Shown: positions 17,681 to 27,762 of the stretch, piece after piece
How positions within the stretch are numbered: position 1 is the stretch's first letter
How the letters are laid out: each line of letters starts with the position of its first letter
Source: an uncultured Candidatus Rokubacteria bacterium
Lineage (GTDB): Bacteria > Methylomirabilota > Methylomirabilia > Rokubacteriales > CSP1-6
Direction: 5' to 3'
NCBI GenBank assembly: GCA_963771355.1
Contig: CAVYTA010000006.1
Span: 288,001 to 352,000 of the forward strand
DNA length: 64,000 bases
Made by a program: the position numbers and the translations under genes
Notes under the pieces: generated by a model
Databases searched by the model: none
The model's input: the letters and a program-made list of their open reading frames with translations, nothing else
What the model was told of the DNA's origin: nothing

Positions 17681-17709
17681 TTGACGTTGGTGGGCATGCC
17701 ACCTATACT
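17681..17709 (+). promoter_or_regulatory. sigma70 promoter of the TRAP-SBP/kinase/cyclase operon, with a dyad in the spacer
   Basis: TTGACG-17 nt-TATACT; the spacer contains GGTGG-GCATG-CCACC. Confidence 0.7.
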
Positions 17710-17896
17710 CGCGGAACAGACCGATAAGTCAGAGGTGCCGAGATAGCGACGCGGCGTTATCGGACCGGTCACTGCAATTGAAGCAACGAAGCCGGCGCGA
17801 GTCTGCGCCGATTTCCTCCGCTCAGCTCCCTCCCAGCCCGCTGTTCGGTCCAAGCCTAACCGCATCGCACCTCGTAGCCCAAGCGAAGGGGCCCGC

Positions 17897-18994
17897 ATGA
17901 CCACCGAGCGGCGCAGGTTCATCGTGAAGGCGGGCGGCATCATGGCGGCCACTGCAGCTGCCGCCATCGCCGATGCTCCCCACGTCATCGCGCAGCCGAA
18001 GGTCCAGTGGCGCATGTCCACGACCTGGACCCCGGCCCTCGACATGCTTCAGGGCTCGGCCCAGCGGCTGGCGAACGTCGTCGAGGAGATGAGCGGCGGG
18101 CGTTTCCGGATCGAGGTCTTCCCGGGCGGCCAGATCATGCCGCCGCTCGACTGCTTCGAGGCCGCCTCGCGAGGCACCATCGAGGCATTTCATGGGGCGC
18201 CGTACTACTGGCCCGAGAGGGAGCCCGCGGTCCAGTGGTTCTCGACCGTACCGTTTGGCATGGACCCCGCGGGCATGACCGCCTGGTACTACCAGGGGGA
18301 TGGGCTCCGGCTCTGGGAAGAAGCATACGCCGCTTTCAACCTGATGCCGCGCCCCGGGCCGGGGGTTGCCCCGCAGATGGCCGGATGGTTCCGGAGAAAG
18401 ATCAACACGATCGGCGACTACAAGGGGCTCAAGATGCGCATTCCCGGCCTGGGCGGCAAGGTCGTCGCCAAGGCGGGCGCCACGGTGGTCCTCATCCCGA
18501 GCAGCGAGATCTACGCCGCCCTCGAGCGGGGCGTGATCGACGCCTGCGAATGGATCGGCCCGCATGACGACATGAAGCTGGGCCTCCACAGGACCGCCCG
18601 CTACTACTATTACCCTGGCTGGCACGAGCCCGGCACCGTAACCGGATTCGGTTTCAACAAGAAGGCATACGACGCACTTCCCGTCGATCTACGCCGGACG
18701 CTCGACCACGCCGCCGAGGTCGTTCAGATCTACGGCCTCACGGATTACCACGTGAAGAACGCGATCGCGCTGGGGCGACTCAAGGTGGAGTTCAAGGACA
18801 AGGTCGAGGTTGTCCAGTTTCCGGTGCCGGTGCTGCGTGAGCTCAAAAGGCTGGCGACGGAGGCCGTCAGAGAAGAATCCGAGAAGACCCCCATGGCCAG
18901 GAAGGTGCACGCGTCCTACACGAAGTTCCAGGCCATGCTGGGCCCCTGGGACCACGTCGCCGAAGGCGCCTACCATCAGCTCGTCGCGGTGTGA
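17897..18994 (+). CDS. dctP: TRAP substrate-binding protein (DctP, TakP-like), Tat-exported, copy 1
   Basis: Tat motif ERRRFI; SGGRFRIEVFPGG, GLKMRIPG, LERGVIDACEW, YYYPGWHEPG. Confidence 0.9.
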   Translation: MTTERRRFIVKAGGIMAATAAAAIADAPHVIAQPKVQWRMSTTWTPALDMLQGSAQRLANVVEEMSGGRFRIEVFPGGQIMPPLDCFEAASRGTIEAFHGAPYYWPEREPAVQWFSTVPFGMDPAGMTAWYYQGDGLRLWEEAYAAFNLMPRPGPGVAPQMAGWFRRKINTIGDYKGLKMRIPGLGGKVVAKAGATVVLIPSSEIYAALERGVIDACEWIGPHDDMKLGLHRTARYYYYPGWHEPGTVTGFGFNKKAYDALPVDLRRTLDHAAEVVQIYGLTDYHVKNAIALGRLKVEFKDKVEVVQFPVPVLRELKRLATEAVREESEKTPMARKVHASYTKFQAMLGPWDHVAEGAYHQLVAV

Positions 18995-19006
18995 GGAGGT
19001 AGCCTG

Positions 19007-26254: not shown

Positions 26255-26622
26255 GCGTGAGCAAGCGCGTCCTGGTCGTCGAGGATCATGAGGAGAACCG
26301 GCGCATCCTGCGCTATCTCCTGGAGAGCGCCGGCATCGAGATGACCGAGGCCGTCACCGGCGAGGAAGGGGTGGCCGCGGCGGAGAAAGAGCGCCCGGAC
26401 CTGATCCTCATGGACATCCAGCTCCCGGGCCTCGACGGCTACGAGGTGACCCGGCGGATCAAGGCCAATCCCGCGCTCCGGCATATCCCGATCATCGTGG
26501 TCACCTCCTATGCGCTGAGCGGCGACGATGTGAAGGCGTTCGCCGCCGGCTGCGATGCCTATGTCACCAAGCCCTTCGTCCCGCGCGAGCTCCTGGCCAA
26601 GGTCCGGGAGTTTCTGGCCTAG
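26251..26622 (+). CDS. Single-domain response regulator (DivK-like)
   Basis: VVEDH, DLILMDIQLP, AGCDAYVTKP; start may be 26251 or 26257. Confidence 0.9.
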   Translation: MSVSKRVLVVEDHEENRRILRYLLESAGIEMTEAVTGEEGVAAAEKERPDLILMDIQLPGLDGYEVTRRIKANPALRHIPIIVVTSYALSGDDVKAFAAGCDAYVTKPFVPRELLAKVREFLA

Positions 26623-26640
26623 CGACGGGGAGGACCCAGG

Positions 26641-27762
26641 GTGCGAACTCCGCCGCGGATCCTGATCGTGGACGACACGCCGGCCAACGTGCACATCCTC
26701 GAGACGCGCCTGGCCGCCAACGGGTACGACATCGTCACCGCGACCGACGGCGAGGCGGCGCTCGCGGCGGTGCGGGAGACCCAGCCGGACCTGATCCTGC
26801 TGGACGTCATGATGCCGAAGCTGGACGGATTCGAGGTCTGCCGGCGCCTCCGGGCGGACCCGTCGCTGCCCTTCATCCCGATCATCATGGTCACGGCCAA
26901 GGCGGACCCCAAGGATGTCGTCGCCGGCCTCGAGGCCGGGGGCGACGAGTACCTGACCAAGCCGGTGGACCAGCCCGCGCTGGTCGCCCGGGTGAAGTCC
27001 ATGCTCCGGATCAAGAACCTCCACGACACCGTGGAGGCGCTGGCGGCCGAGCGCGCCGAGTGGAACAAGACCCTCGAGCGGCGCGTCGAGGAGCAGGCCG
27101 GACAGCTCGAGCAGCTCGGGCGCCTCAAGCGCTTCTTCTCGCCGCAGCTCGCCGAGCTCATCGTGGCGGGCGGCACGGACGATCCGCTCAAGACCCACCG
27201 GCGAGAGGTGACGGTCGTGTTCCTCGACCTCCGCGGCTTCACCGCCTTCGCGGAGACCGCCGAGCCCGAGGAGCTGATGCGCGTGCTCCACGAGTACCAC
27301 GCGGAGATGGGCAAGCTGGTCCTGGACCACGAGGGCACCCTCGAGCGCTTCACCGGCGACGGCATGATGATCTTCTTCAACGATCCGGTGGTGGTGCCGG
27401 ATCCGGCCGAGCGCGCGGTCCGGATGGCGGTGGCGATGCGCGAGCGCGTCCAGCACCTGGTCATGGTCTGGCAGAAGCGCGGCTACGAGCTAGGCCTCGG
27501 GGTGGGGATCGCGCAGGGCTACGCCACCATCGGCGCCATCGGCTTCGAGGGACGCTGGGACTACGGGGCCATCGGCACGGTCACGAACCTGGCCGCGCGG
27601 CTCTGCGGGGAGGCCAAGGGCGGCCAGATCCTGGTCCACCAGCGCGTGGCCACGGCCATCGAGGACCTGGCCGATCTCGAGGAGATCGGCCCCCTCACCT
27701 TCAAAGGAATGGTCCGCCCGGTGTCCGCCTTCAACATCGCGCGGCTCAAGGGGACCGCCTGA
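26641..27762 (+). CDS. Receiver domain-class III adenylate/guanylate cyclase fusion
   Basis: REC domain (IVDD, LLDVMMP, LTKP) followed by cyclase motifs VFLDLRGFT, FTGDG, GTVTNLAARL. Confidence 0.92.
   Translation: MRTPPRILIVDDTPANVHILETRLAANGYDIVTATDGEAALAAVRETQPDLILLDVMMPKLDGFEVCRRLRADPSLPFIPIIMVTAKADPKDVVAGLEAGGDEYLTKPVDQPALVARVKSMLRIKNLHDTVEALAAERAEWNKTLERRVEEQAGQLEQLGRLKRFFSPQLAELIVAGGTDDPLKTHRREVTVVFLDLRGFTAFAETAEPEELMRVLHEYHAEMGKLVLDHEGTLERFTGDGMMIFFNDPVVVPDPAERAVRMAVAMRERVQHLVMVWQKRGYELGLGVGIAQGYATIGAIGFEGRWDYGAIGTVTNLAARLCGEAKGGQILVHQRVATAIEDLADLEEIGPLTFKGMVRPVSAFNIARLKGTA

Follow-up and report, generated by a model that had tools for sequence, protein, structure and literature searches.

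A cluster of seven genes in the genome of an uncultured Candidatus Rokubacteria bacterium (assembly GCA_963771355.1, contig CAVYTA010000006.1) is likely to be a conserved, operon-like sensory unit rather than an uptake system. The cluster lies in a stretch of 64,000 nt, hereafter the window, to which all positions refer unless a locus is named. It encodes three DctP proteins, which are substrate-binding proteins (SBPs) of transporters of the tripartite ATP-independent periplasmic (TRAP) type, followed by an SBP of the ABC_sub_bind family (PF04392; hereafter ASB), a sensor kinase, a single-domain receiver and a receiver-cyclase. The best reading of the comparative data is a two-tier arrangement, in which a variable ligand-binding array and one fixed ASB would both feed the kinase. 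On this view the DctPs would receive the ligands, and the kinase would have the ASB as a fixed co-receptor or adaptor; our confidence in this assignment is moderate.

Seven intact open reading frames, all on the + strand, were listed at 17897..27762. Their Pfam order is DctP (three times), ABC_sub_bind, dCache_1-HAMP-4xGAF-HisKA-HATPase_c, Response_reg, and Response_reg + Guanylate_cyc. The intergenic spacings are 12, 8, 2, -4, -4 and 18 nt, and the seven genes would presumably be co-transcribed. An earlier note on the window, made from its letters alone, had described this gene content; every frame was found open, co-oriented and in its place, and the Pfam families agree. The absence of DctQ/DctM, permease and ATPase genes, also pointed out there, was confirmed for the cluster by Pfam, and the nearest dctQ is 76-79 kb away from the three DctP genes.

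The gene order was followed in relatives by scans centred on the kinase, the DctP and the ASB, which overlap in genomes and are not independent. The kinase-centred scan of 40 relatives showed that the 10 closest sensor domains (65-95% identity) all have an ASB gene immediately upstream. A DctP array of 1 to at least 5 tandem copies precedes the ASB in 9 of these loci, and the tenth ends at a contig edge. A GTDB scan, which covered the best 80 of 502 kinase matches, revealed the DctP-ASB-kinase order in further Rokubacteria and in two Betaproteobacteria records; the order was thus found in two families of the order Rokubacteriales and in these two records. Among the same best 80, arrays of up to seven ASB copies often stand before remoter kinases, which come from Alpha-, Beta- and Gammaproteobacteria, Chloroflexota and Deltaproteobacteria. 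The DctP-centred scan (151 genomes of the class, 50 regions fetched) gave two sets of regions, in which either an ASB-kinase pair follows or dctQM adjoins.

The ASB-centred scan located 56 places in 49 of the 251 genomes of the phylum Methylomirabilota. The kinase lies 3' of the ASB in 54 of them; of the other two, one is at a contig end and one (G167) is without a kinase. The genes upstream of the ASB are variable: DctP in 37 places, Peripla_BP_6 (LivJ-type, in arrays of up to five copies) in 8, TctC in 3, a contig end in 5 and others in 3 (a hand count, with the families verified on representatives). No permease gene was found between the upstream binding proteins and the ASB in the scanned places. 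The synteny of DctP, ASB and kinase, which the earlier note had suggested as a check, therefore holds among the relatives. In one sub-lineage of two genomes (L217:831-1274 and L231:874), a PIN-domain gene separates the DctP array from the ASB; such a gene was also observed 5' of the ASB in G118 and G159, where the contigs end. Several DctP-ASB and ASB-kinase 'fusions' in the databases (P0122, P0123, P0124 and P0190) each occur on a single contig; the three inspected resemble frameshift read-throughs, and all were discarded.

Phylogenetic trees of the DctP proteins were reconstructed. In the tree of 100 rows, one branch with a Shimodaira-Hasegawa-like approximate likelihood ratio (SH-aLRT) support of 100 parts 58 array rows from 19 dctM-adjacent rows, and no array-context DctP was found among the dctM-adjacent ones. 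The dctM side also holds 9 unlabelled rows, and the array side 10 unlabelled rows and the four outgroups; the unlabelled rows were assigned to a side after inspection of the tree, and only the context-labelled rows count as a test. This tree was built by a quick method with no bootstrap, and is unrootable with its four distant, long-branched outgroups. The second tree used closer outgroups, with one frameshifted row dropped and 33 of the 67 array-side rows sampled. The 33 array-side DctPs formed a single clade nested within transporter-linked DctPs, which indicates a direction from transport to the array. In both trees each window DctP pairs with a copy from another genome and not with its window siblings, with which it shares 72-75% identity. 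The transporter-linked dctP genes of the TakP type in this order (L167-L178 and L182-L187) are mostly convergent with dctQM, their 3' ends facing, and not in one operon.

The array clade is also largely parted from its membrane partner. Of the 23 array-clade genomes, 5 (the window genome among them) showed a DctM with 60% or more identity to the sister-clade partner, and 10 gave no DctM match at 1e-60, including genomes of 97, 99 and 100% completeness. The earlier note had named as an alternative that the SBPs serve a DctQM encoded elsewhere; no cognate DctM was seen in 18 of the 23 genomes, and one is present in the window genome.

This alternative is the strongest rival, although an unlikely one. 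It would make the ASB alone the co-sensor, and the DctP, LivJ-type or TctC arrays co-transcribed passengers serving distant transporters. The family counts of the window genome, given as matches and not as copy numbers, are 20 DctP, 13 DctQ, 49 ABC_sub_bind, 44 cyclase and 12 cyclic nucleotide-binding, and include the comparison of dctP with dctQM that the earlier note suggested. For 14 of the 20 DctPs a dctQ is found no more than 2 kb away, unlike those of the window. Their closest paralogue (53-57% identity) adjoins dctQM about 116 kb away, which gives this rival an opening, as do the 13 dctQ loci of the genome. ASB-kinase pairs without DctP are moreover widespread (23 of the 62 loci lacking the kinase insertion described below, with up to 7 ASBs). 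That many SBPs share one membrane component is one explanation offered for orphan SBPs, and was proposed for the orphan TctC expansions (accessible text of PMC5994714). The passenger role is opposed by the missing DctM in most array-bearing genomes, by the clean separation of array-context from dctM-adjacent DctPs in the tree, and by the kinase insertion, which follows the upstream SBP family.

The sensor domain of the kinase is a dCache domain by Pfam and by fold (AlphaFold2 model, predicted local distance difference test score 77, with residues 80-96 of low confidence). An insertion of 17 residues in this domain was found in 26 of 26 DctP-linked kinases, and DctP was upstream of 0 of 62 kinases lacking it; a locus entered this count if a DctP was seen or if its upstream sequence extended to at least 2.6 kb. 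All 10 scorable LivJ/TctC-linked kinases lack this insertion, and one of them carries a different insertion of 9 residues. In a tree reconstructed without the insertion columns, the kinases with this ASB subfamily cluster together (SH-aLRT 98-100), with row L057 outside, and the DctP-linked kinases form one main clade and one separate row. Sensor-domain identity is strongly correlated with ASB identity (rho 0.95, n=39), largely through shared descent, and not with kinase-core identity (rho 0.05, n=32). The number of GAF domains ranges from 1 to about 9 across the relatives. The uncoupling of sensor and kinase core, together with the varying GAF number, suggests that the cytoplasmic end is exchanged, probably via recombination in the GAF repeats.

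Binding-protein genes also adjoin other relatives of this kinase. Remoter Cache-HAMP kinases without GAF domains (L043:2727-7651, L044, L045 and L046) are preceded by a binding protein of the SBP_bac_6/1 type, and a receiver and a receiver protein of 447 aa come after them; they thus combine the same kinase superfamily with another SBP family. NMT1-type binding-protein genes lie immediately 3' of related Cache kinases at L057:4712-7754 and L063:10183-11205, and are followed by a second kinase and receivers.

A second rival, which we regard as quite improbable, is that the kinase itself senses small molecules through its dCache or GAF pockets, and that the SBPs are co-expressed sinks or buffers of free ligand with no kinase contact. 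The dCache fold is complete and its best solved matches are ligand-binding chemoreceptor domains, and the four GAF domains are further possible inputs. A search of the ESM Atlas with the sensor returned generic dCache clusters only. The amino-acid sensors of the dCache_1AA type carry a YxxxxRxW ... Y ... D motif (PMC8915833). By eye, this motif is absent from the sensor, as both W166 and W287 lack an Arg two residues earlier. In addition, the ASB gene overlaps the kinase start or lies within about 140 nt of it in all DctP-linked loci of the insertion count, and a buffering role would need no insertion specific to one SBP family.

The ligand pocket of the array DctPs was compared with TakP, which holds sodium-pyruvate via Y100, Q156, R177, E214, W215 and E240, with Y99 closing the cleft (accessible text of PMC1839085). 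The carboxylate-binding R177 is present in 67 of 67 array-side rows, and neither R177 nor E214 varies in any row. The mean column entropy at the seven contact sites is 0.66 in 57 array DctPs versus 0.09 in 26 transporter-linked ones, and 0.94 versus 0.58 at positions up to three residues away from them. Elsewhere in the protein the relation is reversed (0.83 in the array versus 1.19), so the array scaffold is less variable. A pocket that varies on a held scaffold is the pattern expected of a receptor repertoire. A further set of 'pocket rim' sites (entropy 1.96 versus 0.72) was rejected as circular because it had been chosen after the entropies were viewed.

The window ASB is single-copy in its genome, the next paralogue being 42% identical. 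Its fold matches 6hni, 3lkv and 3lft, and its cleft-region columns are conserved. The solved ABC_sub_bind proteins are binders of aromatic amino acids (accessible texts of PMC10443332 and PMC6816091). The window ASB scored 141 against a cut-off of 390 and is below the TrpX family threshold. An importer of the TrpX/CD0873 type, belonging to the ATP-binding cassette (ABC) class, was ruled out by this score and by the lack of a permease and an ATPase in the cluster.

The sensory reading can be put as a series of predicted steps. Each DctP would close on a cation-carboxylate ligand similar to a 2-oxo acid, and the closed DctP would dock on the dCache domain in the periplasm; the docking site would be the 17-residue insertion at the apex of that domain or, alternatively, the ASB would serve as adaptor. 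From there the signal would run via HAMP and the four GAF domains to the kinase core, which would pass phosphate to the lone receiver and to the receiver-cyclase and thereby switch cyclic-nucleotide synthesis. The binding steps, the ligands, the phosphotransfer and the cyclase product in this scheme are inferred. The earlier note regarded the four binding proteins as interchangeable receptors feeding one phosphorelay. The sensing role stands as the best reading, given the conserved order, the separate clade and the scarcity of a cognate DctM. Interchangeability was not upheld: the array varies in number and in family (DctP, LivJ-type or TctC), whereas the ASB is fixed, single-copy and co-inherited with the sensor. 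A more general proposal, that the ASB is an obligate adaptor plugging unrelated SBP families (TRAP DctP, tripartite tricarboxylate transporter TctC and LivJ-type) into one kinase family, is put forward only tentatively, and we think it clearly less probable than its negation.

Several observations weigh against the sensory reading. The relatives are kin and not independent, and the whole case is genomic. Because the DctP-linked kinases form one clade and one row, the link between insertion and DctP represents one or two events and not 26. The insertion also occurs without a DctP in three loci (L125, L098 and L243), two of them in the main count and the third in G238. G142 and G159 have solitary array-clade DctPs, and in G147 one sits at the edge of a contig; neither a close kinase nor a close ASB was obtained from G142 and G147. 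At L033, an unrelated dctQM lies upstream of the DctP at a distance of 1.3 kb, and the window genome itself has the cognate dctQM about 116 kb off (79% identity to the query). Several array-clade genomes are metagenome-assembled and incomplete, which weakens the DctM absences. In SiaP, E172 is the transporter-docking residue (accessible text of PMC9352664). The pocket variability of the array could instead reflect relaxed selection. The array DctPs appear to retain a Glu that we take to match E172 of SiaP (matched by eye), and therefore a loss of transporter docking is not supported. The least probable rival, an amplification hotspot in which highly expanded SBP families have drifted into an operon that is well expressed, with no kinase link, would fit the 49 ABC_sub_bind and 20 DctP matches, the variable copy number, the broken frames at some loci and the PIN gene inserted in two genomes, but is hard to reconcile with the ASB subfamily before the kinase in 54 of 56 places, with a layout shared by two families and two Betaproteobacteria records, and with array DctPs that outside the pocket are more conserved than transporter-linked ones.

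At the output end, a receiver-cyclase was found in 14 of the 22 DctP-linked loci whose downstream side is readable (the window included, four truncated loci omitted) and is absent in 8; six of the cyclases are of the window type and eight of a divergent type. The FLDLRG, TGDG and TNLAARL segments of the window cyclase align to CyaB, and both metal Asps and the catalytic Asn/Arg pair are retained. Class III adenylate cyclases specify adenine by a Lys plus an Asp or Thr. The window cyclase has R/G at these sites, as do most of its close homologues, versus K/T in CyaB, E/G in 2w01 and K/G in 6fht (an adenylate cyclase construct); its product is probably cyclic AMP (cAMP). The divergent subtype (L031:2856-4121, L075, L082, L086, L152, L154, L158 and L164) has Q/T at the specificity sites and His for the catalytic Arg (VNLAAHL), and may be inactive or form another product. 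The cyclic-nucleotide output proposed in the earlier note is credible for the window; as a defining part of the system it fails, given its patchy presence and two subtypes. Judged by gene content, the cyclase is a swappable output of a conserved front end.

Two other loci of the same genome touch on these parts. A second Cache-HAMP-GAF kinase/receiver/receiver-cyclase operon at C6:1251674-1255646 (49% and 64% identical to that of the window) is without the insertion-type front end, and has neither ASB nor DctP upstream. An orphan DctP of a distant subfamily at C4:128939-132089, with no dctQ closer than 138 kb, is convergent with a kinase region containing HAMP and receiver domains and is possibly a second signalling DctP.

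The features are collected in Table 1. The cluster is flanked by a divergent major facilitator superfamily gene and by a convergent SBP_bac_1 ABC operon; the latter (29566-30876 to 27775) comprises SBP_bac_1 and two permease genes and is not kept beside the operon in the relatives. The strong promoter described in the earlier note could not be substantiated. The upstream region has 2 sigma-70-like sites versus 1.1 +/- 1.1 in shuffled sequences, which is not above chance, and of 17 homologous upstream regions searched with a narrow pattern just 1 has a similar site at equal distance. Narrow patterns likewise revealed no conserved promoter or CRP-like box in these regions.

Table 1. Features of the seven-gene cluster and its upstream region.
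Feature	Position in window	Strand	Remarks
Sigma-70-like site TTGACG-17-TATACT	17681..17709	+	10/12 positions match; candidate operon promoter
DctP-1, TakP-type TRAP binding protein, 365 aa	17897..18994	+	all seven TakP contact residues present; twin-arginine N-terminus by eye
DctP-2, 365 aa	19007..20104	+	75% identity to DctP-1; Q at the TakP Y99 position
DctP-3, 364 aa	20113..21207	+	Y99I, Y100F, Q156E, W215F, E240Q (TakP numbering); R177 and E214 retained
ASB, ABC_sub_bind (PF04392) protein, kinase-linked subfamily	21210..22199	+	stop overlaps kinase start (ATGA)
Sensor kinase, 1352 aa, transmembrane (TM)-dCache_1-TM-HAMP-4xGAF-HisKA-HATPase	22196..26254	+	H, N and G boxes found
17-residue dCache insertion, about residues 80-96	22433..22483 (approximate)	+	tip of a long helical hairpin; marker of DctP-linked kinases
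Single-domain receiver, 123 aa	26251..26622	+	acceptor Asp found
Receiver-class III nucleotidyl cyclase, 373 aa	26641..27762	+	metal Asps and catalytic Asn/Arg found; R/G at base-specificity sites

Why soil bacteria have expanded sets of orphan SBPs has long been puzzling, and shared transporters or signalling have been considered (accessible text of PMC5994714). The present locus family is a clean test case, in which a dedicated DctP clade, off its transporter and with diversified pockets, stands beside a marked kinase. The ABC_sub_bind family, which is heavily expanded (49 matches in this genome), also gains a concrete candidate role from it. Although the host genomes are metagenome-derived, the question is testable on soluble periplasmic domains. 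If the adaptor reading is true, the unit would be a modular two-tier receptor: a bacterium would alter its sensing range when cassettes for the periplasm are exchanged or duplicated, and its response when GAF repeats recombine onto other kinase, receiver and cyclase ends.

Among the known systems, the TRAP binding proteins for keto acids represented by TakP (PDB 2hzk/2hzl) are closest to the window DctPs (E ~1e-73). They share Arg177, Glu214 and mostly Gln156, Glu240 and Tyr100, as well as a twin-arginine start and an aligned C-terminal helix region; whereas the window-type DctPs have no adjoining dctQM, form a separate clade, and are diversified in the pocket and at sites adjacent to it. A TRAP transporter (DctPQM) locus was ruled out, since PF03480 (three times) and the Arg are present but a linked dctQ/dctM is absent. 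The closest solved relatives of the cyclase domain are Pseudomonas aeruginosa CyaB (3r5g) and Synechocystis Cya2 (2w01).

SBP-stimulated kinases with dCache-like domains include LuxP/LuxQ, ChvE/VirA, CBP/ChiS and HptA/HptS (accessible text of PMC8050422). The cluster, known here from its genes, may be likened to LuxP/LuxQ, ChvE/VirA and HptA/HptS: as in the LuxP/LuxQ type, an SBP gene without its own transporter adjoins a kinase with a periplasmic dCache-type domain, and a conserved SBP gene was found beside the dCache kinase in 54 of the 56 places. The kinases listed in that text use one SBP each; whereas a variable array and a fixed second SBP family are found here, together with a multi-GAF kinase and receiver and cyclase outputs. 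In its accessible part, the same text treats DctP only as a transport SBP, covers YdbE/YdbFG of Bacillus subtilis, and has no occurrence of ABC_sub_bind or PF04392. TctC proteins may also signal via a kinase, as BctC/BctE of Bordetella does, and three of our loci have TctC in the array position; BctC, however, also serves its own transporter, the BctE sensor is 2CSK_N, and no ABC_sub_bind partner is described in the accessible texts (PMC8050422 and PMC5994714).

A precedent for a signalling DctP is DctB of B. subtilis, a TRAP-type protein of the DctP family that is a co-sensor of the kinase DctS with DctA (accessible text of PMC12718363, citing Graf et al. 2014). There is one DctB protein, which acts together with the transporter DctA in a system that has a transcriptional response; whereas the cluster and its relatives have 1 to at least 5 TakP-type paralogues and an extra ASB, and the seven genes include neither a transporter nor a DNA-binding regulator. 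No description of the two-tier layout of mixed SBP families was found in the literature searched, with most subscription journals and all supplements outside the search. SBP-stimulated kinases are already known, and to these the cluster would add the mixed-family array and the dedicated DctP clade.

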